DNA of 64,000 nt from a phage: sequence record PV467749.1; one strand, written 5' to 3'. The position numbers and the translations under genes are program-made. The notes under the pieces were generated by a model that saw only the letters and a list, made by a program, of their open reading frames with translations, ran no database searches and was not told the origin of the DNA. Of the stretch, positions 3,366 through 47,353 are shown piece by piece. Within the stretch, counting starts at the first letter, position 1; each line of letters starts with the position of its first letter.

Positions 3366-4114
3366 CGCATTCGTTCCTTAATTATAGTTTCAACCTGTGG
3401 AATTGCTTTCGTCGCAGGTTTGATGACTTTCTCATTAAAAAGAAAATCATTATCATTTTTTCGGATGTTAACATTTACACTATAGCATGGAAGTGCACCA
3501 GCTAGTCTGGACCATACCAGTACTGTATCACTACTTCCAATAACTACAACTGTATCATTTTCTGTGAGACTTTTCAACACTTCATTTCGTTCTTCATAAA
3601 TGGGGAGACGTACCCCATCAACGTAGCGATGATACTCACCAATCATCACTACATTTGGTTTTGCAAAAACATCAGCTTTAGGGATATATGGTTCATAACC
3701 ACAATTAATGACATTGTAATCATCGGTATTAATAGAAAAGTTCTCAATTACTTCACATAAATTGCCGTGTAGTTTGAGTTCGGTTCCACCAATTCTAGTA
3801 TATAGATCATCCATATTAGAAGTCATGTGTAAAAAACAATCACCATACAAATCTTCTAATGATTTAATAAAGTAATGCATTTCATTAGGATGACATTCAC
3901 CTAATTTTACACGCAATGTATTATAAAATGAATGAACTATATGATACTTAGAACTAAGTCGTGCAATGTTACAAACATCATTAATTTTGAAATTGTCCCA
4001 CAACCCATCATCAAAGCGGAATGGTTCCATCCCGCTCTCAACTGAAAGACCTGCCCCTGAAATTATAAGTAATCTTTTGTTCCCAGCATTTTGTATAAAT
4101 TTATCTGATATCAC
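3362..4114 (-). CDS. Sir2-family (sirtuin-like) NAD-dependent protein
   Basis: 250 aa; GAGLSVESGMEPFR matches the sirtuin NAD-binding motif GAG(I/L)S.ESG.P.FR; downstream LKLHGN (candidate catalytic His); no obvious CxxC zinc ribbon. Confidence 0.7.
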   Translation of the reverse strand: MISDKFIQNAGNKRLLIISGAGLSVESGMEPFRFDDGLWDNFKINDVCNIARLSSKYHIVHSFYNTLRVKLGECHPNEMHYFIKSLEDLYGDCFLHMTSNMDDLYTRIGGTELKLHGNLCEVIENFSINTDDYNVINCGYEPYIPKADVFAKPNVVMIGEYHRYVDGVRLPIYEERNEVLKSLTENDTVVVIGSSDTVLVWSRLAGALPCYSVNVNIRKNDNDFLFNEKVIKPATKAIPQVETIIKERMR

Positions 4115-4123
4115 ATTTACTCC

Positions 4124-4315
4124 TTATATAAAAAGTATCAAGTTTAATACTAAAAATACAATGATAGCAATATGATAGACATACATCCACTTATTGTGTC
4201 CATGTTTATTACCATTCCTGAATTCTCGGTATAAACATTTAGTATGATTGTATAACACCACACAAATAAACACAACTATGAAACAAAAAATCCACTCGTA
4301 AACTATGTATGCCAT
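4124..4315 (-). CDS. small hydrophobic membrane protein (63 aa)
   Basis: two hydrophobic segments (WIFCFIVVFICVVLY; IAIIVFLVLNLILFI). Confidence 0.4.
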   Translation of the reverse strand: MAYIVYEWIFCFIVVFICVVLYNHTKCLYREFRNGNKHGHNKWMYVYHIAIIVFLVLNLILFI

Positions 4316-4346
4316 CAGATATACTCTCTCTTTATAATTATTATTC

Positions 4347-4940
4347 TCAGTATTTCAAAATATCAAACTCTGGACTAACACTTGTTACATTATCACTGAC
4401 AATTTTGAAAATAGACTCAACACGTTCATGTAACTGAACATTGGTTTCTTCTTGAACTTCAATATACGCTGACATGGATGCAATTGCATGATAAGTCCCA
4501 CTTCCGACAGCAGTAATTTGTGTTTTAGGTTGCAGTACTGAAAAGTCTTCTTGAACTTCATAAATCGTATGATTATGAAGAATAATGAACTGACCACCAC
4601 CAACGTCTTGTGATGCATCACGAGCACCCCATTCATCTTTAAACATTTGACGAATGATAGGAATAACTTTCAGTACTAGATACTGTGAAAAGGTTTCCCC
4701 TGCAACTTGTTCTGGTAGAGTTAGGTTGTAATTCAACAACTGTCCCATGCGGAACGAGGTAGTATACCCCAACGCCATTACTTCTTTAGTGCGAGTAAGA
4801 CCATCCTCATTGAGTTTAATGAACTCTTTCTCAAACACTTTAGGCTCAGTTTGAACTGCTTTAGTGAAACCATTGCTTCCTAATTTATCACCAGCGATGA
4901 AGGAAGATGTGCCATTTGTGTGAGCGATAATACAAGTCAT
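4347..4940 (-). CDS. HslV-like (Ntn-hydrolase / proteasome beta-type) peptidase
   Basis: likely start at ATG 4940..4938 (AAGGAG RBS; ATGA overlap with upstream stop), giving Met-Thr N-terminus MTCIIAHTNGTSSFIAGD as in HslV (TTIVSVRRNG..IAGD); later GSGTYHAIAS like HslV GSGG; track ORF 4347..5009 starts too early. Confidence 0.65.
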   Translation of the reverse strand: MTCIIAHTNGTSSFIAGDKLGSNGFTKAVQTEPKVFEKEFIKLNEDGLTRTKEVMALGYTTSFRMGQLLNYNLTLPEQVAGETFSQYLVLKVIPIIRQMFKDEWGARDASQDVGGGQFIILHNHTIYEVQEDFSVLQPKTQITAVGSGTYHAIASMSAYIEVQEETNVQLHERVESIFKIVSDNVTSVSPEFDILKY

Positions 4941-5197
4941 GAAATAACTCCTTGTGCAAAAAGTGCCGTATACAACCAGTATATCAGCAACCCTAGTGTA
5001 AGTAAACATGCTCCGTAAGAAATTGATAGAACATAGTAAATTCCTGCTTCTAACTTGGATGCAAATTTGTGTGTACTGGAATCCATAAAACCACGTTTGT
5101 AGTCTTTATAGATGAAACATGTTAAAACTAATGTAATGCAATATACAATAGTTGTTGCATAAAAAACAAGAGATGTTAAGTTTTGTAAATTTGTCAT
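4937..5197 (-). CDS. small membrane protein (86 aa)
   Basis: two predicted TM helices; AGGAG RBS sits inside a 7-bp hairpin (ATACACT/AGTGTAT) at 5212..5228. Confidence 0.5.
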   Translation of the reverse strand: MTNLQNLTSLVFYATTIVYCITLVLTCFIYKDYKRGFMDSSTHKFASKLEAGIYYVLSISYGACLLTLGLLIYWLYTALFAQGVIS

Positions 5198-5289
5198 AGT
5201 TTATACACTCCTAGTGTATGTGAACTTATAACAAAGGATGTACCACTTTATCATCCTCTTATTATAATATTATTATTTTGTATCTAATA

Positions 5290-5898
5290 CTAATGAATGA
5301 TACTACCTAATTCGAGCAACTGATCTGGTGTAAGTCTCACAACTTCATTACCACGAACCTTACTAACCTCCACTAACAATTCTGGAGGAATACCATTCGC
5401 TGCATATAACGCAAATAGAACACCAACCTTAGTTGATAGCTGTTCAGCAAAAATAGTCATTTGGCGAACTGATATGTATGTGTCATCACTATTTCGTGCT
5501 TTACTTTCGATTGACACATTATGTAGACCTAGAATTGAGTCCTTCATCATGTATCTGTTTTCTATATTAGCACTAAAGAATGCGATAGTGCAAGAAGAAT
5601 TACAATATCTTTCAACAATAATTGTTAAATTGTTATCATTGACAAAATTTCCTAGTGCCACTCCCGCATCAAAATCACCACCAGGTGACGTAATGATGAT
5701 AGTGTCAAATGGGTGTGTTTCTCTAAAAACCATCAAACGGTTTACAGTATTTTCAGTTAAAGTTGAAATGAACTGAACTGTCTGTTTAGATTCATCATAT
5801 CTAATGATACTTTTTCTTTCAACACCTGCACTTGCAGGAAAGTTAATTAAGAAAATAATAATAATAGATTGGATGATTTCTTTACATAATCGTACCAC
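5290..5898 (-). CDS. secreted ClpP/SppA-like (S14/S49-type) serine peptidase-like protein
   Basis: 202 aa; hydrophobic signal-like N-terminus; IITSPGGDFDAGVALGNF resembles the ClpP INSPGG region; track start is GTG at 5898. Confidence 0.45.
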   Translation of the reverse strand: MVRLCKEIIQSIIIIFLINFPASAGVERKSIIRYDESKQTVQFISTLTENTVNRLMVFRETHPFDTIIITSPGGDFDAGVALGNFVNDNNLTIIVERYCNSSCTIAFFSANIENRYMMKDSILGLHNVSIESKARNSDDTYISVRQMTIFAEQLSTKVGVLFALYAANGIPPELLVEVSKVRGNEVVRLTPDQLLELGSIIH

Positions 5899-6033
5899 TG
5901 GTTAACCCTCTTAGTTGATTGTTGATTACATAAATAATATTATAGGAAGATTTAACTTAAGTCAAATTGTTTTTTATATCACTTCACAAATTCCCTCACA
6001 GAATCACCCCGCCTTTTTACCTTCTTTTGAATG

Positions 6034-6061
6034 ATTATATCACACTAATGTATAATGTCTA
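6034..6061 (-). promoter_or_regulatory. sigma70-like early promoter candidate (TAGACA-N16-TGATATAAT)
   Basis: minus strand TAGACA (6061..6056), 16-nt spacer including TGA, TATAAT (6039..6034); in the 250-bp noncoding region upstream of CDS 5290..5898; a second weaker TTGACT-N15-TATAAT lies at 5939..5965. Confidence 0.45.
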
Positions 6062-6149
6062 TGCTTTTGTCAACAAATAACGTGGTAGTACTGAACTCGT
6101 TGTTGGTTCTAAGAGTTTTCCTGAAATTCAAATTATCGTGTACTAACAA

Positions 6150-6180
6150 AAGAAAAAGGAGCCTTATGGCTCCTTTTTTT
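6150..6180 (-). terminator. strong bidirectional intrinsic terminator
   Basis: AAAAAGGAGCC-TTAT-GGCTCCTTTTT perfect stem flanked by A-run and T-run; immediately 3' of CDS 6179..6445. Confidence 0.75.
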
Positions 6181-6445
6181 ATTCTACAGTATTAAGCTTC
6201 TGACAAATCATGTCAGCTTCAACACGGTCTTTATAATAAATGGTAAAACCAAATTTACCAGTTACTTTATACTCTTTACAAGTTAAACAATTTACAATGT
6301 AGTACTTGTTGTTTTGTGCTGAAAATCGTACTTCATGATTACGCATCACTGGTGGAGTAGTATTATCATTTAATACCATCATCACTAAGAGTACAAGAAT
6401 CACAACTGCAAATGGAATACCTAAAATCAAGAAAGTCAAAGTCAC
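6179..6445 (-). CDS. hypothetical protein with N-terminal TM helix (88 aa)
   Basis: N-terminus MTLTFLILGIPFAVVILVLLVMMVL hydrophobic. Confidence 0.5.
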   Translation of the reverse strand: MTLTFLILGIPFAVVILVLLVMMVLNDNTTPPVMRNHEVRFSAQNNKYYIVNCLTCKEYKVTGKFGFTIYYKDRVEADMICQKLNTVE

Positions 6446-6918
6446 AACCCCTTATCATAAATGCAATTTACAATAATCCCAGCATCTTCCAGTACTTTAA
6501 TAGCTTCTGGTGGAGTGCGAGGATAACTTTTGTGATAAATCACGCGAGCAATACCACTTCCCGCGATCAACTTAGAACAAGTATAGCATGGTTGCAGCGT
6601 TGTGTAAAGTGTTGCTCCCTGACGTTCGGTAGGTGAACTGTATAACAATGCATTCATTTCAGCATGGATTTCATGGATATTACTCCATTCATGGTGTTCA
6701 TGCTTTGCGTCATCGCTAACCCAGTCTTGGAAACGTCCACCATTAACTAAGTGCTCATTAGCGTCACAGCAGTTAGGTTGTTTAGATGGAGTGCCATTAT
6801 AACCAGTACTCAATACTCGGTTATTTTTAACAATAACACAACCAACTTTCTGTGAAATGCATTTACTCTCTTCAGCCACGACTTCGGCTATCTTCAACCA
6901 CGTCAAGTGTTTCATCAT
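6442..6918 (-). CDS. cd: dCMP deaminase (cytidine/deoxycytidylate deaminase family)
   Basis: 158 aa; zinc-ligand motifs HAEMNAL and PCYTCSKLI (H-A-E ... P-C-x-x-C). Confidence 0.85.
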   Translation of the reverse strand: MMKHLTWLKIAEVVAEESKCISQKVGCVIVKNNRVLSTGYNGTPSKQPNCCDANEHLVNGGRFQDWVSDDAKHEHHEWSNIHEIHAEMNALLYSSPTERQGATLYTTLQPCYTCSKLIAGSGIARVIYHKSYPRTPPEAIKVLEDAGIIVNCIYDKGL

Positions 6919-7399
6919 ATACTCCTAGGGATTGTAATTTGGTTTTACAGTTCGAATGTATTTTAAGAACACGAAGGTAGTTTAGCACATCTGATTCTTC
7001 AATGTCAAATGGTTTCGCTGCATAAACGTCCCATGCTCCCATTAATTCTGTACAGAACTTGATATCACCCGAACCCAGCAACTTGTCACGGAATTGTTTA
7101 AACTCGATTTCTTCATCGGATAATGAAAAACCCAAATCCATAAAGCACATACCACCAGCACTGAAGCATGACCCAGATGATGTACCAATTAAAATATCAT
7201 CCATCCCATATAAACCGTAAAAAATATTGGAGTACCAAGTACTAAGTTTACTTCGGTGATGATATTTAAGAACATTCTTCTTGATATTTACATCTAATGA
7301 ATTAGCTGATGATATCACTTTTTTGGTTAAAATAATAGTTTTGTTCAAATTACTCAACCATACTTTAGTATCAGTTGGGCTAAGAGCAGTGTATTTCAT
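6872..7399 (-). CDS. hypothetical protein
   Basis: 175 aa ORF; 3' end overlaps the cd start by 47 nt. Confidence 0.55.
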   Translation of the reverse strand: MKYTALSPTDTKVWLSNLNKTIILTKKVISSANSLDVNIKKNVLKYHHRSKLSTWYSNIFYGLYGMDDILIGTSSGSCFSAGGMCFMDLGFSLSDEEIEFKQFRDKLLGSGDIKFCTELMGAWDVYAAKPFDIEESDVLNYLRVLKIHSNCKTKLQSLGVYDETLDVVEDSRSRG

Positions 7400-7400
7400 G

Positions 7401-7925
7401 TTAATCCTCTAAATTCCATTCATCAACCATAGTTGAGCATAATTCCATGTGTCGGAAATATTTCTCATTAAGTGAATATGGACTCTTATAAAATTGTCGT
7501 ACATCAGTGAATATATCATAGTTTCTATATATAAATGACATATTTTTATTCATGAATTCTATAATCTTCCATAACTTTTCTGTATCGTTTCGTATAGTTT
7601 CTGCACTCAATCCCGTCAATTTCATTAGACGCTTGATTTTGAAGCCTGACTCTATTGACGTATTATTATGCTTAGTTAAGTAACTATAGCCGATAGAACT
7701 CTGTATTAGTTCGATACTATCAGTACTGGTTATTGTTCCTAGAAATGATCTTAAATTTCTATTCAACCAATACCATTTTTTGTTCTTGTTATAGTAAGAA
7801 TACCATTTTTTAACTATATCTATTGCCTCTGAATTTAATCTCTCGGCAAATTCATCAATTAAAAACATGTGATTGAAAAATAAATCACTTTGATCTTCAG
7901 ATAATTTATATTGCTGCATATCCAC
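7401..7925 (-). CDS. hypothetical protein
   Basis: 174 aa; track start is GTG at 7925, in-frame ATG at 7919. Confidence 0.55.
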   Translation of the reverse strand: MDMQQYKLSEDQSDLFFNHMFLIDEFAERLNSEAIDIVKKWYSYYNKNKKWYWLNRNLRSFLGTITSTDSIELIQSSIGYSYLTKHNNTSIESGFKIKRLMKLTGLSAETIRNDTEKLWKIIEFMNKNMSFIYRNYDIFTDVRQFYKSPYSLNEKYFRHMELCSTMVDEWNLED

Positions 7926-8002
7926 CTACCCTATTAACAATTACACCTTGGGTATTTACCTCGTATGGATCAATTTTTGATCAATAATTTTTGATATGCA
8001 GC

Positions 8003-8031
8003 AAATAAAATGGGAATCATGAAAGATTCCC
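8003..8031 (-). terminator. intrinsic terminator-like hairpin
   Basis: GGGAATC-ATGAAA-GATTCCC 7-bp stem at 8012..8031 followed on the minus strand by ATTTTATTT; 3' of CDS 8039..8485. Confidence 0.5.
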
Positions 8032-8038
8032 TAAGTAA

Positions 8039-8485
8039 TTATTTCTGGAATGGAGTGTACTGGTACTGCTCACAATCAGATACAGTTAGTACACCTTCAT
8101 CATAACCGTACTGGAGAATAAGATCAAATGCTTTATCAACCATAGCTACAACGTCTTTGTAACGAACGATGGTATGTGCCTGTTTCTCAACTGCTTTCAT
8201 AATACCCATCAACATCCAGCGACCTTCATCAGTGTGAAGTTTAGCAAAACGAGGACGTTTAGTTGCTGCCATAATGTCAGTCCATTCTGCTTTAAACACT
8301 GATGGACGTTTAGGAATATCATACAGAGTTGTTGGGAATGTTACGTTGTTTTTCTTCATAGCTTCAGCTTGTGCAGCACGATAACCTTGACGGAATAGTG
8401 GGTGCTGTGATTTTAGCTGTTCATTGTTAAAAACTACTTTGTTTTTAAACGCGTCATAACCTTCTTTGTGTTGTGCATTAGACAT
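8039..8485 (-). CDS. hypothetical protein
   Basis: 148 aa ORF, no recognisable motif. Confidence 0.55.
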   Translation of the reverse strand: MSNAQHKEGYDAFKNKVVFNNEQLKSQHPLFRQGYRAAQAEAMKKNNVTFPTTLYDIPKRPSVFKAEWTDIMAATKRPRFAKLHTDEGRWMLMGIMKAVEKQAHTIVRYKDVVAMVDKAFDLILQYGYDEGVLTVSDCEQYQYTPFQK

Positions 8486-8486
8486 A

Positions 8487-8816
8487 TTATTCTTTCCCCT
8501 CGTCAGTACTGATGAATTTTTTATCTGAGAATGTGCCGTGTTCTTGACGCATAGCTTCTGCGTGTTGAACTGCGTTAATTGGATTAATGTTCTTTTTAAT
8601 AAGAACTTCTTGCATTAATTCGAGAACAATAGAAAAACCATTGAGTACTCGCTCTGCCTCGTCAACACCTTTCAATTCAATAGCCACTGCACTAATCTGA
8701 TCTAATGCGGTATTAATAAACTCTGAATCATCTAACACATCATTGACTTCAGTATTATTACGTACAAGAACTTTCATATAATCTCCAGAAATAAGATGCC
8801 CCAAATGAGGCATCAA
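8487..8816 (-). CDS. hypothetical protein
   Basis: 109 aa ORF. Confidence 0.5.
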   Translation of the reverse strand: MMPHLGHLISGDYMKVLVRNNTEVNDVLDDSEFINTALDQISAVAIELKGVDEAERVLNGFSIVLELMQEVLIKKNINPINAVQHAEAMRQEHGTFSDKKFISTDEGKE

Positions 8817-8828
8817 ATGAAATTCAAA

Positions 8829-9524
8829 TTAGACCCACTCTTCCACGCCACCGCGACGTTTGACGAGATACTTACCTTCTTCGTTGCGTGGACCAAGGAT
8901 GATACCATCAATGAAACCATGTTCACCGTATTCGAGTGCTTCTTCAGCGTTCAACCACAGGTCACGATCCGCATCTTTCAGTAGTTGTTCGTGTGATACA
9001 CCAACTGCTTCAGCGATTTCTTTAGTCAGTAGTGTGTTCAATGCATCAGAGTGTTTCAAGGAAATCTTCTGATCAGTAATCAGACCCTGAGTACCGGAAC
9101 TTACTTGGTGACACATGAAGTAAGAACGCTTACCACCTAGACGGAAACCTTTAGTACCAACTACTGATTGTGTATAGCAACCCATTGATGCTGCATAACC
9201 CATTACTACTGTACGGATAGGAGATACACAAGACTTAGCAATGTCAGCGATACCCAAACCTGCGTGTACTGAACCACCAGGAGAACTAATGTAGAAGGTA
9301 ATTGGTTCAGAACCCTGAGAATCCAACCACACCAATTGTTGCTTGATGATATGTGCCATTTGGTCATTGAAGTCAGTATCAAGGAAAATGATACGGTCTT
9401 GCATCATACGAGATGCTAGATCATAAGTACGTTCTGCACCATTAACTTTTTCAACTACATAAGGAATAGAAATGTTGCGAACTTCACCACCAGCATAACC
9501 ACCAAAATTGAATTGTTCAACCAT
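8829..9524 (-). CDS. clpP: ATP-dependent Clp protease proteolytic subunit ClpP
   Basis: 231 aa; SSPGGSVHAGLGI, GYAASMG (catalytic Ser region) and MCHQ (His) motifs; RBS AGAGGAAA; ATG 9524..9522. Confidence 0.85.
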   Translation of the reverse strand: MVEQFNFGGYAGGEVRNISIPYVVEKVNGAERTYDLASRMMQDRIIFLDTDFNDQMAHIIKQQLVWLDSQGSEPITFYISSPGGSVHAGLGIADIAKSCVSPIRTVVMGYAASMGCYTQSVVGTKGFRLGGKRSYFMCHQVSSGTQGLITDQKISLKHSDALNTLLTKEIAEAVGVSHEQLLKDADRDLWLNAEEALEYGEHGFIDGIILGPRNEEGKYLVKRRGGVEEWV

Positions 9525-9558
9525 TGTTATTTTCCTCTATTGTTTCATTGATGTGAGT

Positions 9559-9586
9559 ATTATATCACAGTGTTCGTATTTGTCTA
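9559..9586 (-). promoter_or_regulatory. sigma70-like early promoter candidate upstream of clpP (TAGACA-N16-TGATATAAT)
   Basis: minus strand TAGACA 9586..9581, 16-nt spacer, extended -10 TGATATAAT 9567..9559; -35 overlaps the stop of the upstream gene. Confidence 0.5.
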
Positions 9587-9967
9587 CAAGTTTCTTAAAA
9601 AATCTAGTAAACCGCAAATTGTATGTTTATTAAACATATCGTGGTCAATCTTTAACAACTTAACCATAGCATTATCATACACCGTAGAGTCGGTAATGTC
9701 AAACAAAGAATTTGTGTAATAACGTTCATTTTCTACATAAATGTATAATTCATTTGATTTGTCAAGATCTTCATAGAAGTTAGCATCAAAGTACTCTGCA
9801 TTTCCATCAATCCAAACCTCAACTGAATCATCATCTAAGCAGTAGTTTCTTGCTTCTTTTGAATATATTTCCAGCTTTCTGGCTGCACTGGAGTAATGTT
9901 TATAACCATTAATTACGTACTTTATTTCATCATTGTACTCAATTACATACACAACGATATTTTCCAT
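9584..9967 (-). CDS. hypothetical protein
   Basis: 127 aa Y/D/E-rich ORF. Confidence 0.55.
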   Translation of the reverse strand: MENIVVYVIEYNDEIKYVINGYKHYSSAARKLEIYSKEARNYCLDDDSVEVWIDGNAEYFDANFYEDLDKSNELYIYVENERYYTNSLFDITDSTVYDNAMVKLLKIDHDMFNKHTICGLLDFLRNL

Positions 9968-10362
9968 CAGTACACCCCTATTGACGCAAGAGCATGAAGA
10001 AATTCATATCGTATACCAACTGGGATGTCATCAAAATCAATCTCAATCATTCTTAGTGAATTTGAAAATTGTTCGTATTTAAAGAACGTATTAATTGATA
10101 AAGTACTGAATGGTAACACATCACCACGACTATCATCATGTACAAGAACATACACCTTTCCCACAAATGAATCTAAATCGTCTGCTTGTCTTACATCACT
10201 GATGAAGTTATACCTATCTTTCATCACAGTGCCAGTACCATCAGGATTGTAGTATTGGGTTTTATCACAAGAGTATAGTATACGCATACCCCATCGTCGA
10301 TACAAATGACAGCTACCCAATATAACAAGCATTTTGTCTTTTATATGCAATGTATATATCAT
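9967..10362 (-). CDS. hypothetical protein
   Basis: 131 aa ORF. Confidence 0.55.
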   Translation of the reverse strand: MIYTLHIKDKMLVILGSCHLYRRWGMRILYSCDKTQYYNPDGTGTVMKDRYNFISDVRQADDLDSFVGKVYVLVHDDSRGDVLPFSTLSINTFFKYEQFSNSLRMIEIDFDDIPVGIRYEFLHALASIGVY

Positions 10363-10371
10363 AGTAATTCC

Positions 10372-11163
10372 TTAGATTTCAAATACAAATTTAGGATCGT
10401 AATCGAAGTTCTCACATGCACCACTGTAAGATTCATAACCTCTTGGATTACAAATGATACGAGTTTTCCCAATGTTGTAGTCAAAGCTACTATGAACGTG
10501 ACCATGAATCCAAACATCAGCACCCAAATCTTCGATGTACTGGTCCATATCAGAACAATAACATCCATTCAGTGAGTCATTCTTGTATCTCGGAGATACA
10601 CTCTGATAACTTGGTGCATGATGTGTTACCACCACAACCTTGAAATCATTATCATTCATTAGACGAACTGTGTTAACTGAATTTTTGATAAATTGTTTAT
10701 CCTGATGATGCATGAACTCAACATCATCAGGTTTGAGCTTACGTTTCCACGGTTCTGATGTTGTTCCATGACGAATGTGTTTATAATCATTCATCTTTTG
10801 TTGAGCATCAAACTTAACCAGTGCGTTGCCTTTATCAAAGTCAGTCCACAGTGTACTACCAACCAGCAGTACACCATCCAGCCATACAAATTTGTTTTGC
10901 AAAAAGATGAAATTTGGAATCTCATCTTGCATATCGGACAGTACTTTATTAGTCTTGTGAATGTTTGAACCGTAGTACTCATGATTACCAGGAACCAGTA
11001 CTACATTCTTGAACTGCTTGCACAGGGATTCGATACCAGTACGATAACGACTGCGTTTAGCTTCATCAAAGTCCCCTGCAATAATCAGTACTGTATCACT
11101 GTAATCACCACTATGGAGGTAATCAGTGCCACCGTGTACGTCTGACGTTACAACAAATTTCAT
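10372..11163 (-). CDS. calcineurin-like metallophosphoesterase
   Basis: 263 aa; SDVHGG, AGDFDE, VPGNHEY, VTHHAP, IHGHVH metal-binding motifs. Confidence 0.8.
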   Translation of the reverse strand: MKFVVTSDVHGGTDYLHSGDYSDTVLIIAGDFDEAKRSRYRTGIESLCKQFKNVVLVPGNHEYYGSNIHKTNKVLSDMQDEIPNFIFLQNKFVWLDGVLLVGSTLWTDFDKGNALVKFDAQQKMNDYKHIRHGTTSEPWKRKLKPDDVEFMHHQDKQFIKNSVNTVRLMNDNDFKVVVVTHHAPSYQSVSPRYKNDSLNGCYCSDMDQYIEDLGADVWIHGHVHSSFDYNIGKTRIICNPRGYESYSGACENFDYDPKFVFEI

Positions 11164-11182
11164 AATTACCTCCTATAAATGA

Positions 11183-12601
11183 TTAACCAAGTGATTCAAG
11201 AATACTGTTAGAGAACACCTCAACAGCACTATCACGAATTTCTAAGATACGAGTATAGTCGTCACAAGTGTTTTTGTCAAATCTAAATTCAATAAACACA
11301 GGTAAAAATAGTGATGGTTCGCCAGTACGCTGATCATACACTATATCATTGCACTCCACGGTTACTACTTGACCAATGAGTTCTTGCATTCTTTCCCAAA
11401 TGGTTTTAAACGTCCATTCTGCGTCTTTCTCTTTAATTCCAGTACCTACATTAACTTTCAATGTACCACAAGCACTTTCCAGTTGTAAAGAACCAAGGCT
11501 ACCTTTACGCTTACCTTCACCTTCATTGAAACCAACAATACGCAAGTCCAATTGCATTTTAAGTTTCATTTTCAATTGCTTAGGAGAAGTGTGAGATTTC
11601 CAGATACCATCTTCACATTTCAGTACTGAACCCTCTTCACCTTCGTTCATTAGTTCACTATTGTACTCAAATGCTTCTTTGATGTTTAGAACTTTACGGA
11701 ATCCAACCATACGAACAAAATCACTACCGAGTTCGTTAATTGCATCTACTAAGATCTCGCGGCGTTCTTTGCGTTTTACATTCCATACACCTTCACAAAA
11801 TGCATCATATGGAACAACATCCCAGAGAACGAATACAGTACGCATTGCTTCATTCTGACTGATGCTATCTTTACCAGCTTTCTGGATAATACCGTTACCA
11901 GTAGTGCGTGGGAGAATGGTTTCTCCATCATTGTCCAGTACTACACCTTCACCCATAAAGACTACACCACTACTAAAACGTTCATCTTTACTTTGGATGA
12001 TGTGAGCAAGACCTGCCATTTCACCATCACGACAACCCAGGAAGTCGTATAGTTTACCATTACGGGATGTAGAAGTTAATGAACCATTAATGACAACGTG
12101 GTTCAAGTACTGACCATCCATTTTAACTTCTGATATAGCATAACCATAATCTTTGAAGTTAATGTTCTTTGCAGTCTTTTTGTCAATCAACGAACAACGC
12201 ATGTATGGTTCGTCTTTGATAAAACCTTTCCCGAACACATCATTGCAGTTCTTTTCTTGGATACCACAATCAAGGTTCTTCGTGAGCATTTTACGAAGAA
12301 CTTCCTGGTCATCTTCTGATACAGAACCCAGCACTGAAGCAATGAAGTCACGCCCAGCATTTCCGGTCACACCACGTTTGTAAATGCATTCTAGCTTATC
12401 AATTGCTTCGTCTAATGTCATATGTTGGTATACATCATCAGCTTGTGGTAGCTTTTTATACCCACTTACAATTGAAGGGTCTAGTGTATATTTCAGTACT
12501 TTTTGTAATGTTTGGTTATCTTTGTTTTGTTCAAGGATAGCTTTTTTACCCAGAGTACTGCTAGTATTTTTAATGCTTTCAAGAATTGCTAAAATGCTCA
12601 T
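11183..12601 (-). CDS. ATP-dependent DNA ligase (T4 gp30-like)
   Basis: 472 aa; N-terminus ILAILESIKNTSSTLGKKAILEQNKDN resembles T4 ligase N-terminus as recalled; nucleotidyltransferase motif I EVKMDGQ; motif IV-like EGSVLK; motif V-like LKMKLKMQLD. Confidence 0.8.
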   Translation of the reverse strand: MSILAILESIKNTSSTLGKKAILEQNKDNQTLQKVLKYTLDPSIVSGYKKLPQADDVYQHMTLDEAIDKLECIYKRGVTGNAGRDFIASVLGSVSEDDQEVLRKMLTKNLDCGIQEKNCNDVFGKGFIKDEPYMRCSLIDKKTAKNINFKDYGYAISEVKMDGQYLNHVVINGSLTSTSRNGKLYDFLGCRDGEMAGLAHIIQSKDERFSSGVVFMGEGVVLDNDGETILPRTTGNGIIQKAGKDSISQNEAMRTVFVLWDVVPYDAFCEGVWNVKRKERREILVDAINELGSDFVRMVGFRKVLNIKEAFEYNSELMNEGEEGSVLKCEDGIWKSHTSPKQLKMKLKMQLDLRIVGFNEGEGKRKGSLGSLQLESACGTLKVNVGTGIKEKDAEWTFKTIWERMQELIGQVVTVECNDIVYDQRTGEPSLFLPVFIEFRFDKNTCDDYTRILEIRDSAVEVFSNSILESLG

Positions 12602-12612
12602 TGTATATTCCC

Positions 12613-13815
12613 TTATAGATAATACTTTCCAATGTAAAGTTTATTACTTAGTGATAGCTGGACGTGACAAGGTTTTTCTTGGTAGTAACGAGTTGATGAT
12701 GTTTTATTTTCAGTCGGTGGGAAGAAAGGAGAACGGTATCCGTTCCATGTACCAAATGATACATGTTCGTTTAAATCCACATCCATTGTCATAATACCAT
12801 TAGCATCAATTTCAACTGGATACGCACTGTATCGTTCAAATACATCAGTGTATTGAAGAATATAATCACCATTACGACCATAATAACTTCTGGTTGTATT
12901 GTTCTTTACACCAAAGAACACACGATATGCTTGGTCACCAACTTTAGACATGAACGGTACGTTCTCGTTGAATCGTCCATTACTCATTATATCATCAGGA
13001 TTGATTTCTTCGTACTTTACTTTCAAATCTTGTGCTTTAAACGACTTATCACTTATCAGTACTGGAATATTGCTTTCACATAATGGGTTACTGCGATTTC
13101 GTTGGATATTTTGCCAAAATGCATTAGCTTTAACAATTTCATCTTGAACTGTAGTTTTTACATTCAGTGCAGCACTTGGTTCTAACGCATAAGTTTCAAG
13201 ACGAGCATTAAGAGCATATGTCCCACGAGTAGTATTATATACTAAGTGATACTTGGAACTCTTATCAGAAAATGAAAACTCTTTAGTTTTCTTGATACAA
13301 ATAGCATTTACTTTACCACAATAATAGTAATCTTCTTTATTGTGTCTAAAACCATCACCCACTTTCAATTTAGAAACAACTTCTTTTTGATGTTCTTTCT
13401 TATTCTCCTTCTCAACCAATTTAGCAAAGGTTTTAGTTTTACCGTTAATTAGTTCTAAACTATTATTAAAGAACATAGGTTCAACAAATACACCCTTAAC
13501 AATATCATTGTTGATGATAAGGTCGTTCATGTTTTTAGCACTCACCAAGAACTCGAAACCTTCAGGGTGACGTATGGTGAAGTATGTTTCGCGAGCATGA
13601 ACAGTGAGCTTATGTACCACAGAAAACCCAATTGTAGGCACATTATCAATCCATAGTGAAGGTAGATTGTTTTTCTTAGCCCAGTACTCGGCCTTTTCTT
13701 TTTTAGTCTCAAACGCTTTTGTGTGTGATTTTGTAGCATCTATAATGTAACCAGTAACTTGGTTATGATTTACATATGAACGAGCCACAAATAACTTCTC
13801 TGGAAAATCCATCAA
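12613..13815 (-). CDS. hypothetical protein (400 aa)
   Basis: long ORF, no motif recognised. Confidence 0.6.
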   Translation of the reverse strand: MMDFPEKLFVARSYVNHNQVTGYIIDATKSHTKAFETKKEKAEYWAKKNNLPSLWIDNVPTIGFSVVHKLTVHARETYFTIRHPEGFEFLVSAKNMNDLIINNDIVKGVFVEPMFFNNSLELINGKTKTFAKLVEKENKKEHQKEVVSKLKVGDGFRHNKEDYYYCGKVNAICIKKTKEFSFSDKSSKYHLVYNTTRGTYALNARLETYALEPSAALNVKTTVQDEIVKANAFWQNIQRNRSNPLCESNIPVLISDKSFKAQDLKVKYEEINPDDIMSNGRFNENVPFMSKVGDQAYRVFFGVKNNTTRSYYGRNGDYILQYTDVFERYSAYPVEIDANGIMTMDVDLNEHVSFGTWNGYRSPFFPPTENKTSSTRYYQEKPCHVQLSLSNKLYIGKYYL

Positions 13816-30546: not shown

Positions 30547-31092
30547 TTATAGACAGTTAAGTACTATGTCATCAAAAGTACTACTGTCAATGTTGTATTC
30601 ATATAAAAATTTAAAATGTGATCCATAACGCATCATCAGATTAAACTCTTCTTCAGTATTAAATTTGTAATCATGAAGAGTTTCAAGGGTACATGTTAAA
30701 CCTAAAAACTCAATAATTTCTGATGTTACATCATTTCCTGAATTGAAGTATTTAACCCAAACACATTTTCCTTGTGGGTTGAATTTTCTATATTCTCCTT
30801 CTAGTTCTCCATTGACGATATGTGCTTTCGCACTGATTAGATTATTACTATAACGCTCTTCGTAGTAGTTCCCATAACGAGCTTTAAGAATTGTAGGCTT
30901 CTTGGTTGGGAATAACTTAATGGAAGTTAATTCAAAACCGCACTGCAACTCTTTGATGTACGAAATACATCCCTTTTCTTTAATCACAACAAAACCAGTA
31001 AAATTCTCTTGGTCTTGGTTCTGATTGTCTGAATCAACAAATTCTAGTGTTTTATAAGTGACGCTTTTAGATTTTTTAATAAATGACATCAT
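30547..31092 (-). CDS. hypothetical protein with MORN/YwqK-like G-x-x-x-G-x-Y repeats
   Basis: probable start at tandem ATG ATG 31092..31087 with AGGAATA upstream; track ORF starts at GTG 31143; GELEGEYRKFNPQGKCVWVKYFNSG repeat-like segment; TEEEFNLMMRY resembles family-A core. Confidence 0.5.
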   Translation of the reverse strand: MMSFIKKSKSVTYKTLEFVDSDNQNQDQENFTGFVVIKEKGCISYIKELQCGFELTSIKLFPTKKPTILKARYGNYYEERYSNNLISAKAHIVNGELEGEYRKFNPQGKCVWVKYFNSGNDVTSEIIEFLGLTCTLETLHDYKFNTEEEFNLMMRYGSHFKFLYEYNIDSSTFDDIVLNCL

Positions 31093-31711
31093 TATTCCTA
31101 TGGAAACATCAATGACTGTACATGGCGTTGACTTCATCAACACCAGTCGAATTATACACGCTTCGCATGTCTAATTCGACGAAAGTACTATGATTTGTTT
31201 TAATTAATATTGACGGGGTTTGCTTGAGCATATTTCATCCCCCCGCAGGGGAAAGAACAAAAAAAGTTTGACGCTGGTGGCCTTCACATAGTTCATATCA
31301 CGAATTCTCTTACGAGGCGAAAGCGGGTTGCTCTGTTTCTCTCTATCGCGGTTCTTGTAGCAACGGTCGTCGGTCTTAAACATCCCGACACATAATACAA
31401 ATACCATATGACCAGTACTTGTATTTGATTTCACGAATTTTGGACGCAACTATATTGTATAAATTACGACCGCAAATTTCTCATGAAATCTCCCTTAGAT
31501 AATTGGTAAGGTGCGATCCTTATATGTCTATCGAGGAACTCTCTTTATCCTATTGGAGTTCTTTATACAGCCGCATTGCCGTGAGTGGTTCAAACTATGC
31601 CATCATCTAACGGGTTTCATTTGCTGTTCGTACTGAAAGGACTACTCATCTACCCTCTACTTTTCGAGTGGATTAGGCTTTAATCATTTCCATATGGAAC
31701 CTTTCAGGATT
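31093..31711. other. ORF-free, GC-enriched island (~620 bp): candidate structured ncRNA(s) or regulatory/origin region
   Basis: no ORF of 60 aa or more on either strand apart from an implausible 81-aa frame; visibly higher G+C than flanks; local hairpins (GTCGG..CCGAC; GTTGCT..AGCAAC); TATAAT near 31151; no tRNA T-loop motif found. Confidence 0.3.
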
Positions 31712-31745
31712 AAAAAAAGGCGACAACATATTCTGCTGTCACCTT
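31712..31745 (-). terminator. intrinsic terminator 3' of CDS 31774..32622
   Basis: minus-strand hairpin GGUGACAGCA-GAAUAU-GUUGUCGCC (10 bp with two G-U pairs) followed by U7. Confidence 0.6.
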
Positions 31746-31773
31746 ACATTATATCATAAACTTATGGTATGTC

Positions 31774-32622
31774 TCAGTTGTATTCTGTTTTTTCAGTGAA
31801 ATTAGTTAAGATATCTGCACTTAAGCTTCTCATAACCTCAATCTTACTTGGCATGAACCTGTGCTTGTTTTTTACATACAACTCATCATCTTCAATGAAA
31901 GATGTGAACATGAATACCATATCTTCACGTGGAATTGAGAGAATATTACAGTTTTCATTTTCAGCAACAGGGGAATCATTGTAGTACTTAGAGAATGCAG
32001 TACTTTGACGACCGATTATGATAGAATTTCGGATTAGAAAATTACTACAGTACTGAAAATCTTTGTAGTACTTGTCAAGGATATATGGCATTATCGCTTC
32101 TTTCACTTCTTCATATCCATTTGAACTATCAATTGCAGTACAATAATCTTCTCGGTCTTTATTCCCTCGATGATTATCAAACTCGTACTCAAAGAATAAA
32201 TTTTCATTTAATGAATTATTTGAACCAACTGATCCACTATAGTATGATTTTCTATCATTCATTCGATCATCGGGGCATGATGCATACATAGAAATGTCAT
32301 GTGTTGACGTACCGATATAAATTTTCTTAGTAATGTGATTGTACGCGATGTAATCATAATCTTGTACTCCAGTGAGCATTAACTGGAACATCAATTCATC
32401 AGGAACATCAATCAACGGGTACTCAAACTTCGAATATCTACTACGACAGAAATTCTTTTCAAATGCTCGATATGCGATGAAATCTTTTAGGTTTGTAATA
32501 GATTCATGCTCATGTGTATTACTGGTGCGTACATTGACATTAGTAGACGAGCAATACCCTTCAGATTCTTCTGTGTAGTCATAATAACCCTTACTGTAGT
32601 CAACGATTAGATAAAGTTTCAT
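31774..32622 (-). CDS. hypothetical Tyr/Asn/Asp-rich protein
   Basis: 282 aa ORF. Confidence 0.6.
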   Translation of the reverse strand: MKLYLIVDYSKGYYDYTEESEGYCSSTNVNVRTSNTHEHESITNLKDFIAYRAFEKNFCRSRYSKFEYPLIDVPDELMFQLMLTGVQDYDYIAYNHITKKIYIGTSTHDISMYASCPDDRMNDRKSYYSGSVGSNNSLNENLFFEYEFDNHRGNKDREDYCTAIDSSNGYEEVKEAIMPYILDKYYKDFQYCSNFLIRNSIIIGRQSTAFSKYYNDSPVAENENCNILSIPREDMVFMFTSFIEDDELYVKNKHRFMPSKIEVMRSLSADILTNFTEKTEYN

Positions 32623-35831: not shown

Positions 35832-36231
35832 GAACTTTACCTTTAAGTAGATTAATTAATGTTCGCATAGATTCAGTACTGACAGTACCAAAATCAACAC
35901 CTAAGCACTCGTATTGAAAGAACTCAATAGAATCAATTGAGTCCAAAGGAATCTCAACAACCTGATTCCCTATACCAGACATAGTAACATTGCTTTTATT
36001 AATCGTCAAGAAGTTTTTTGAATAAGTATTAAATTTTAGTGAAATCGCGTCGGGGTGCTTTGTAACAATGCAGTACTGGGAACCATACACATATAGTACT
36101 TTACTTTCACTAAGATCTGTTTTAAAAAAATGAATCCCATTGAAGTATTTCTCATTGGCTCCCATCGCCGCGATTAGTTCATCTGTTGTTGTTAACCTTG
36201 TTTCGTTCTTCGTTAAACTGTTGAAAAGCAT
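35818..36231 (-). CDS. array family A member (divergent core)
   Basis: 137 aa; core SIEFFQYECL; start possibly internal Met 36165. Confidence 0.5.
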   Translation of the reverse strand: MLFNSLTKNETRLTTTDELIAAMGANEKYFNGIHFFKTDLSESKVLYVYGSQYCIVTKHPDAISLKFNTYSKNFLTINKSNVTMSGIGNQVVEIPLDSIDSIEFFQYECLGVDFGTVSTESMRTLINLLKGKVHAFN

Positions 36232-47064: not shown

Positions 47065-47353
47065 ATGGATAATTTTCCATAATACGATTCAAAAGTATCT
47101 GGTACTGTTGTAGTACTTCAATTTCCAAATGTATACTACTATCCAGTACTAATGACTCCTGAAACAATTCACCTGTATCTAAACCTGAAAAATCATTTAT
47201 AGTTAGCATTGGCTTATCATTTGTACGCAATGTAAATGATTCCTCATTTCGGATTAATGTACAGAATTCATTATGTTTTCTGTTATAATTCATTTTAACT
47301 AATAATAACTTAGTGTGAGTTGCGTACATTATTTTTACTAATTCAGTCTTCAT
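47015..47353 (-). CDS. array family A member
   Basis: 112 aa; core TGELFQESLV. Confidence 0.6.
   Translation of the reverse strand: MKTELVKIMYATHTKLLLVKMNYNRKHNEFCTLIRNEESFTLRTNDKPMLTINDFSGLDTGELFQESLVLDSSIHLEIEVLQQYQILLNRIMENYPCEVGGPMQFKSKMYEL

Follow-up and report, generated by a model that had tools for sequence, protein, structure and literature searches.

The gap and its RNA

What occupies the largest noncoding gap of a densely coding stretch of phage DNA? The question is raised by sequence record PV467749.1, of which a stretch of 64,000 nucleotides (the window) was analyzed; its coding fraction is 0.925, and a gap of 630-680 bp separates two genes on the minus strand. The evidence presented here identifies the gap as a predicted gene for a highly structured RNA of approximately 540-620 nt, extending on the minus strand from about 31741 to 31200 and possibly on to about 31120. 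Homologs of this RNA are found in several copies per genome in Rak2-like jumbo phages as well as in integrase-bearing defense islands of Enterobacterales, and we tentatively favor the view that the element could serve as a transcript-primed replication origin.

Once a nonconserved open reading frame (ORF) of 81 aa is set aside, positions 31093-31773 form the largest ORF-free stretch of the window, with the next-largest gap measuring 347 bp. This ORF (31204..31449, minus strand) is the only one of at least 50 aa between the flanking genes and lies wholly within the RNA. Across 47 homologous copies, the longest ORFs comprise 34-88 aa, and 147 aa in one case; they are not shared between copies, and indels are not multiples of three. 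The G+C content amounts to 0.404 (31093-31711) or 0.409 (31200-31700), compared to a window mean of 0.334 (standard deviation 0.034 for 500-bp segments), a level reached by just 1.65% of 500-bp segments. These results bear out an earlier note on the window, which had described an ORF-free, G+C-enriched island at this locus. Among the identities considered there, a structured noncoding RNA of a type other than tRNA is the correct one, as shown by the covariation described below. An origin, also named there, is the mechanistic reading that we tentatively favor. A tRNA is excluded, with 0 tRNA or tmRNA genes detected by ARAGORN on either strand of the whole 64-kb window. A degraded gene is excluded because no ORF is conserved, substitutions preserve base pairs, and the gap is conserved above its coding flanks; a frameshifted or alternative-start protein gene covering the region can be discarded as well, as no reading frame is conserved among the homologs. 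The phage itself belongs to the Rak2-like jumbo phages (Asteriusvirus) and is not a classical T4-like phage.

Many GenBank genomes (e.g., PBECO4, 121Q, WPEC3/5, JP4) list the 81-aa ORF or comparable short ORFs as "hypothetical protein", which is probably a mis-annotation. Short conserved ORFs (a Shine-Dalgarno-like UAAGGGAG followed by AUG, and one starting with GGGGGGAUGAAA) were considered as well and rejected, since neither their frames nor their lengths are conserved.

Covariation reveals a multiply pseudoknotted fold

Compensatory changes were visible already in a simple alignment of the homologs. For a more comprehensive model, 41 nonredundant copies were aligned (alignment A1), for which RNAalifold predicted 63 pairs, and compensatory double changes were seen in 38 of these; further helices, some of them long-range, were added from a scan of all A1 column pairs. 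The resulting model comprises 95 pairs in 18 helices, including four pseudoknots. In three of these, the loop of a hairpin is paired with a remote single-stranded segment; the hairpin of the fourth is only 3 bp long. With this model, 96.0% of 3,695 pair cells in A1 are canonical, whereas sliding the partners by 1-3 columns reduces this share to 35-42%. Changes on both sides were observed in 70 of the 95 pairs (646 cells), and the covariation score is 0.489, as opposed to 0.06-0.10 for the slid controls. None of 500 shuffles reached any of the observed measures. Furthermore, about 100 columns of A1 are invariant, many of them outside the modeled helices.

Copies that had not been used to build the model conform to it. 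In six bacterial copies, 79-92 of the 83-94 pairs present are canonical. A divergent homolog from Klebsiella phage K64-1 has 17 of the helices, 13 of which pair completely; pairing is weak in P1, H6, and PK-b, and several helices have new compensatory pairs.

Strand, promoter, and terminators

The fold also indicates the strand. In pairs common to the folds of both strands, mismatches read on the plus strand are A:C in 39 cases vs G:T in 8, which means that it is the minus strand that tolerates G:U pairs. Folding with RNAfold yielded z-scores of -1.99 (minus strand) and -0.49 (plus strand). The element thus reads as a minus-strand gene for an RNA, on the G:U-tolerant strand and with its own predicted promoter and terminators. 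The earlier note had assumed plus-strand polarity, with a terminator at 31712..31745 and a TATAAT near the downstream end. While the hairpin with its T-run and the TATAAT do exist, both belong to the minus strand, on which the former marks the 5' end of the transcription unit and the latter, at its upstream end, is part of the RNA's promoter. We further considered a plus-strand reading with the TTGACG and CTGACG boxes as -35 hexamers. It was discarded for three reasons: the would-be -10 of box 1 is the covarying 3' strand of PK-c, the key A is missing from the would-be -10 of box 2, and the G:U asymmetry favors the minus strand.

A predicted strong promoter with an extended -10 element stands in front of the gene, and the predicted transcription start lies at about 31741. 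Within the aligned copies, TGnTATAAT is kept, and TGAAAC, TGGAAC, or TGGGAC is found in place of the TGAGAC of the window copy; the layout of such a box, 17 nt, and TATAAT or TATACT recurs in jumbo-phage, prophage-like, and island copies. This upstream box matches the promoter class with a "TGAAACG -35" that has been reported for the phages CBB and GAP32 and of which 11 of 18 sites lie upstream of the CBB_258-329 block, rich in DNA-synthesis genes (PMC5259590). Exact TGAAAC-N16-18-TATAAT sites were not found in the window (0 sites). The hairpin that follows the -10 box has two roles: it is the upstream gene's intrinsic terminator, and, since its 5' arm contains the predicted start, it also forms the 5' stem-loop of the RNA. 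GAP32, BF, and a Yersinia phage have the same arrangement of -10 box, hairpin, and U-run in their syntenic copies.

Anatomy of the window copy

The window copy can be divided into a 5' domain, a central domain, and a 3' domain, followed by a distal module and a trailer (Table 1), with CGUCA boxes before the U-tract (box 1) and at the end of the distal module (box 2). In most other copies, the U-run is preceded by a covarying terminator-like hairpin (helix 17), which is absent from the window copy and its syntenic orthologs and which shows changes on both sides in 5 of its 6 pairs among the 21 copies having it. The distal module is kept in every copy, including those with this upstream hairpin, and its own hairpin (helix 18) varies solely by C-to-U on the minus strand. 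Other copies have a different trailer, which is conserved and hairpin-rich and ends with UUCUUGAC, a hairpin, and GGCAA(A)UG.

Table 1. Features of the RNA gene and its surroundings. Positions refer to the window unless another sequence is named.
Feature	Position	Strand	Details
Upstream flanking coding sequence (CDS)	31774..32622	minus	
Upstream promoter box TGAGAC	31771..31776	minus	overlaps TGA stop of upstream CDS; 17 nt from -10 hexamer
Extended -10, TG-a-TATAAT	31748..31756	minus	predicted; 10/12 matches, TG present; TATAAT at 31753..31748
5' hairpin and U-run	31710..31745	minus	hairpin 31745..31717, 12 pairs
5' domain	31630..31707	minus	covariation model
P1	31707-31700 with 31640-31633	minus	
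5'-domain hairpin	31676-31650	minus	loop GAAAAGUA
GAUGAG	31650-31645	minus	invariant
PK-a	31645-31643 with 31632-31630	minus	pseudoknot
Central domain	31427..31627	minus	covariation model; also holds invariant UAAGGGAG
H5	31627-31623/31571-31567	minus	
H5b	31613-31610/31582-31579	minus	
H6	31561-31556/31541-31536	minus	
PK-b	31550-31548/31499-31497	minus	pseudoknot
H8	31522-31519/31510-31507	minus	
H9	31490-31488/31429-31427	minus	encloses optional hairpin module
Optional hairpin module	31473-31442	minus	loop UACAAUAUAG
3' domain	31292..31425	minus	covariation model
H10-11	31425-31414/31405-31394	minus	loop pairs with 31298-31292 (PK-c)
H13	31390-31387/31371-31368	minus	
PK-d	31364-31360/31331-31327	minus	pseudoknot
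H15	31350-31346/31303-31299	minus	
H16	31343-31339/31323-31319	minus	
H17	31316-31314/31309-31307	minus	
Box 1, then U7	31259..31276	minus	CAGCGUCAAAC; CGUCAA 31273-31268; U7 31265-31259
Distal module	31210..31251	minus	hairpin CCCC-UGC-GGGGGG (31251-31239), invariant G-run, GAUGAAA, box 2
Box 2	31215-31210	minus	CAAACCCCGUCAA; CGUCAA at these positions
3' trailer	31122..31200	minus	hairpins 31180-31146 and 31141-31127; precedes ribosome-binding site and ATG (31092)
Downstream flanking CDS	30547..31092	minus	ATG start; GTG at 31143 possible
LR-29-1 island	L306 5,728-16,524		between ybaA and ffs (signal recognition particle RNA gene)
Enterobacter island order			variable defense cargo, invertase, LprI-like, 286-aa unknown, Ner-like HTH, S24 repressor, RNA, integrase

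The optional module, with loop UACAAUAUAG and a 3' arm of AUCCGUCC-AAAAUU, is found at either or both of two sites (A1 columns 305-345 and 480-515), and the segment in A1 columns 142-188 has a short and a long form, which alternate in mosaic fashion between paralogs and between genomes. These two patterns suggest gene conversion between copies.

A second copy of the RNA was not found within the 64-kb window. Other ORF-free gaps of 280-350 bp are located at 35832-36178, 5899-6178, 5010-5289, and 47065-47342, in which Rfam and ARAGORN searches revealed nothing. The only other 500-bp segments with a G+C content of at least 0.42 (maximum 0.442) are found at 651-1450 and 8651-9450, both of which are coding.

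Copies at conserved positions in Rak2-like jumbo phages

The region is 99.8% identical to the Asteriusvirus jumbo coliphages Ecwhy_1, EC.P1, and fEgEco12. In more distant coliphages, the gap alone is better conserved than the gap together with its flanks (96.7% vs 92.4% identity for PBECO4, 95.0% vs 89.2% for G17, and 95.0% vs 90.4% for 121Q). With blastn, the gap was found in 62-72 jumbo-phage records at approximately 70% identity and in 4-5 separate places per genome. The hosts of these phages belong to Escherichia, Salmonella, Erwinia, Serratia, Cronobacter, Pectobacterium, Yersinia, Xanthomonas, and Klebsiella, and genomes with 4-5 co-oriented paralogs include Asterius-, Mimas-, and Eneladusvirus as well as the more divergent Alcyoneusvirus (Rak2-like). 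The best matches in GAP32, BF, and XbC2 are syntenic and unannotated, with the same hypothetical genes on either side, and adjoin genes for an N6-adenine methyltransferase and a cytidylyltransferase. For CBB, the best match is to a paralog, which neighbors endonuclease VII.

Three pattern scans of IMG/VR and an nhmmer profile yielded about 60 copies, all on contigs of approximately 350 kb or fragments, and the IMG/VR scans returned no copies outside jumbo-phage contigs. Among 50,697 phage records, the RNA occurs solely in the Rak2-like jumbo group, and no temperate phage of this collection matched. In every genome, the copies (4-5 per approximately 350 kb) are co-oriented and 55-145 kb apart. 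Examples are the complete, unannotated genome of TH47 (352 kb), with four copies in the same orientation at 49.3, 146.0, 262.0, and 345.5 kb, and Yersinia phage fHe-Yen9-04 (354 kb), with copies at 24.5, 93.3, 174.3, 260.4, and 334.7 kb. In TH47 (MT446416.1), copy 2 is followed by about 530 bp more without an ORF before the next gene (145,510-146,040).

Copies of the Mimas-, Eneladus-, and Yersinia-type phages cluster by genome position and not by genome, resulting in five orthologous groups; each locus has therefore been retained across genera. Asteriusvirus copies instead cluster together. Four of the five positional groups have a co-directional ORF that starts directly after the conserved trailer. 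The genes just downstream differ between genomes and include an ADP-ribosylglycohydrolase, a DNA methyltransferase, and unrelated hypotheticals (e.g., in contexts L039, at about 6,900-7,730, L028, and L029), and the site after UUCUUGAC-hairpin-GGCAA(A)UG may be a hot spot for the exchange of accessory genes. The best-conserved copy, at about 174 kb (CBB and GAP32), is antisense to both neighbors and ends at a bidirectional terminator; likewise, TH47 copy 3 is antisense to its neighbors and ends at a terminator.

The divergent homolog of Klebsiella phage K64-1 (Alcyoneusvirus, NC_027399.1, about 279.5-280.0 kb; context L318, 1478-1956) is full-length, and in GenBank four tiny ORFs are annotated on it. 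In this copy, CUUCA replaces CGUCA in both boxes, a parallel change suggesting, as judged from sequence, that one lineage-specific partner contacts both boxes. This partner is probably encoded by the phage.

An RNA in the backbone of bacterial defense islands

Among 5,426 complete E. coli genomes searched with blastn, the RNA is present on two chromosomes. In E. coli LR-29-1 (NZ_AP027515.1), a full-length copy (427 bits with nhmmer) resides in an island of approximately 10.8 kb beside ffs (Table 1). The copy has a promoter of its own and includes the two optional modules as well as the terminator-like hairpin and box 2. This island further encodes a tyrosine integrase split by IS3, an invertase, an mSLOG-DUF4326 protein, and PDC-M45 (DuOB, DUF488) as well as PDC-S16, both of which are PADLOC candidate defense systems; no literature on DuOB, DUF488, or DUF4326 was found. 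Downstream of its RNA, a further stretch of about 770 bp (11,051-11,820) is free of ORFs.

A pattern scan of genomes returned mostly chance matches, from which nhmmer recovered five more true copies, originating from a Silvania isolate, a Buttiauxella metagenome-assembled genome (MAG), an Enterobacteriaceae MAG, and two others; all 120 matches listed from a scan of metagenomes with GACCGT..ACCCGC..AAT were due to chance. The genes flanking the five copies have no similarity to the jumbo phage. Four of these copies lie after a tyrosine integrase or a large serine recombinase, and four of them converge into a gene for a repressor with HTH and S24 domains. In Silvania hatchlandensis H19S6 (L139, NZ_JAMGZK010000045.1), the RNA adjoins a large serine recombinase of 703 aa, as it does in context L156. 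Since the recombinases beside the RNA differ, the RNA-repressor module travels with different recombinase types.

Homologs of the S24 repressor are widespread in Enterobacter, Klebsiella, Cronobacter, Leclercia, and Citrobacter, with one exact repressor protein indexed in 762 blocks of the collection. Four Enterobacter contexts (L314-L317, about 3,500-13,400) revealed the same island of approximately 10 kb between msrA/tamAB and ytfL, and all four contain the RNA. Their defense cargo varies (GmrSD; DUF4238 with nSTAND3; AAA_15/21 with a Dam methylase), and the RNA, of which each island has one copy, is part of a conserved backbone in which it lies between integrase and S24 repressor. Replication, packaging, or structural proteins were not recognized in the island backbones, and the backbone proteins of 286, 303, and 257 aa have no informative family. 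From their gene content, with an integrase and a regulatory switch, these islands look like an uncharacterized family of satellites or defense islands. They are frequent in Enterobacter, Klebsiella, Cronobacter, Citrobacter, and Leclercia, whereas E. coli rarely carries them. None of 72,556 plasmids contained the RNA, a result that speaks against a host-only replicon.

Such islands have precedents. Integrase-only defense islands of Pseudomonas were demonstrated in 2025 to be satellites of jumbo phages (PMC12595487, PMC12772148). The I55, I23, and I44 satellites (PMC12595487) resemble the islands described here in being integrase islands with defense cargo and without recognized transfer or replication genes, but they differ in their hosts, in their size (20-70 kb vs about 10 kb), and in their nucleus-forming helper, and no RNA element has been reported for them.

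Comparison with known RNA families

None of the 4,227 families of Rfam 15 matched the 64-kb window at the gathering score, and at E<=10 nothing relevant was found in the window element, five other phage copies, or the Enterobacter copy. The families not matched include GOLLD, ROOL, OLE, RNase P, group I and II introns, tmRNA, 6S, and HEARO. A suspected resemblance to motifs of E. coli RNase P RNA was not supported by Rfam. No description of the RNA was found in the literature on Rak2-like phages, jumbo-phage noncoding RNAs, and GOLLD/ROOL. The RNA family is thus undescribed, being absent from Rfam 15 and from the literature searched.

The RNA resembles GOLLD and ROOL in its length of hundreds of nucleotides, its elaborate conserved fold, its phage and prophage carriers, and the absence of an associated protein gene. 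However, it fits neither Rfam model and, unlike GOLLD and ROOL, is present in multiple copies at conserved positions, has its own promoter class and CGUCA boxes, and occurs in Enterobacterales islands. In PA5oct, a distant relative of the Rak2-like phages, "putative lncRNAs" (long noncoding RNAs) ncRNA001-004 have been defined by RNA-seq (PMC7318152). These are likewise ORF-free regions of several hundred nucleotides, and those of PA5oct are transcribed; homology with ncRNA001-004 was considered and found neither by nhmmer nor by motif search.

Possible functions

What might such an RNA do? Its fixed positions across genera, the antisense group located between terminators, and its place in the island backbone argue for a role in the propagation cycle, as opposed to accessory cargo or a leader serving one particular gene. 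By analogy with known systems, we propose, with a rough probability of 0.35, that the element is a cis-acting, transcript-primed (R-loop) replication origin, which satellite-like islands would imitate. RNA polymerase would transcribe a folded pre-primer RNA, and the fold, the two CGUCA boxes, and the invariant G-run after the U-tract would promote a persistent RNA-DNA hybrid (R-loop). A T4-type phage replisome could then use this hybrid, and leading-strand synthesis would start in the direction of most phage transcription.

Such an origin would combine features of T4 oriF/oriG and ColE1 RNA II. The former are promoter-driven R-loop origins, several of which are present per genome and which use the promoter class of replication genes, while ColE1 RNA II is a structured pre-primer of about 550 nt with a G-rich element that favors a persistent hybrid. 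Shared features are the predicted promoter-driven transcript of about 500 nt, the G-rich element, and, with regard to T4, several origins per genome: the jumbo phages carry 4-5 copies per approximately 350 kb in one orientation, the invariant G-run follows the U-tract, and the promoter class is that of DNA-synthesis genes in CBB and GAP32. Yet no sequence similarity to these systems was found or is expected, the RNA is far more structured and invariant, and it is absent from the plasmids searched. Kreuzer and Alberts reportedly found that T4 replicates ori-bearing plasmids and packages them as concatemers, a parallel to the islands carrying the RNA. By means of their copy, these islands would be amplified, and possibly packaged by headful, by an infecting jumbo phage, which would make them satellites.

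Several points weigh against an origin. Cumulative GC skew does not switch at the four TH47 copies, but it follows gene orientation in this genome and is uninformative here. Approximately 80% of the genes lie on the strand of the copies, rendering their co-orientation weak evidence, and the even spacing is merely suggestive (p of about 0.02 for five random points, by our own rough estimate). To our knowledge, neither the R-loop origins described so far nor RNA II need four pseudoknots or about 100 invariant nucleotides, and constraint at that level is more typical of ribozymes or ribonucleoproteins (RNPs). In addition, the island promoter looks constitutive as judged from its sequence, and the unannotated 286-aa backbone protein could be a replication protein.

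This level of constraint is better accommodated by a stable RNA acting in trans, as a ribozyme or as an RNP subunit working with host or phage proteins, in phage propagation or in conflicts between phage and host or phage and satellite. This is the main alternative, to which we assign a slightly lower probability than to an origin. The phage copies would then provide dosage, and the islands' own copy would plug into, sense, or interfere with the phage program. The multiply pseudoknotted fold, with its many invariant positions outside helices, fits this explanation better than an origin, and each copy represents an autonomous unit with predicted promoter and terminators, the copy at about 174 kb being self-contained between terminators. 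The mosaicism of the modules and the grouping of Asteriusvirus copies according to genome point to gene conversion that preserves their similarity, a behavior known from multi-copy RNA genes, and the neighborhoods are rich in accessory and defense genes. Furthermore, the large phage RNAs GOLLD and ROOL are reported to act as free RNA assemblies (PMC12286853). On the other hand, no conserved partner protein adjoins the gene, neither an activity nor a target can be named, and dosage alone leaves the fixed positions of five ancient paralogs across genera unexplained. Moreover, the island RNA belongs to the invariant backbone and not to the variable cargo.

We regard as improbable that the RNA is a cis-acting leader that modifies RNA polymerase, as in processive antitermination of the HK022 put or rrn type, or otherwise controls downstream transcription. 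Like HK022 put and the rrn and lambda nut elements, it is a structured RNA just 3' of a promoter, with an internal terminator that is apparently read through and conserved sequence beyond, and it has the same orientation as gene arrays, i.e., that of about 80% of genes. The co-directional ORF after the trailer in four of the five positional groups and the many intrinsic terminators of these genomes, 74 of which have been predicted in CBB, would suit such a leader. However, the RNA is about 7 times the size of put RNA, and the downstream genes vary between genomes. One positional group cannot serve downstream genes at all: the copy at about 174 kb (CBB and GAP32) is antisense to its neighbors and ends at its own terminator, and therefore the element does not serve a downstream gene there, with TH47 copy 3 arranged in the same way. 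The island RNA, in turn, is convergent into the repressor gene.

A selfish or mobile repeat, a recombination hot-spot cassette without RNA function, or a decayed protein gene might account for the multiple copies, the optional modules at alternative sites, the mosaic short and long forms, the variable neighbor genes, and the small "hypothetical proteins" of several GenBank records, but is very improbable and effectively refuted by hundreds of compensatory changes and the strand-specific G:U tolerance, in addition to the lack of a conserved ORF, the synteny across genera, and conservation above that of the flanking genes.

Implications

Large, highly structured RNAs are rare, and new classes have tended to expose new biology. 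The RNA described here has very strong support from sequence comparison and is located in well-studied therapeutic coliphages (121Q, PBECO4, phAPEC6, G17, fEgEco12), in which it is unannotated or mis-annotated. Its identification corrects the annotation of approximately 70 phage genomes and provides a new RNA family for structural study. Furthermore, the link between phages and islands makes two questions testable, namely how replication of Rak2-like phages starts and how islands without recognized replication or packaging genes spread. It is a tentative and, on present weighing, rather unlikely proposition that the RNA links Rak2-like phages to the approximately 10-kb defense islands of Enterobacterales as phage-exploiting satellites, in which case the phage copies would be ribozyme-like RNA-primed origins or serve another essential RNA-dependent step, via a phage factor that reads the CGUCA boxes. 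With satellites of jumbo phages first reported in 2025 (PMC12595487, PMC12772148), such a link, if true, would add a class to the structured RNAs and, for the first time, reveal an RNA-based mechanism by which a satellite exploits its helper.

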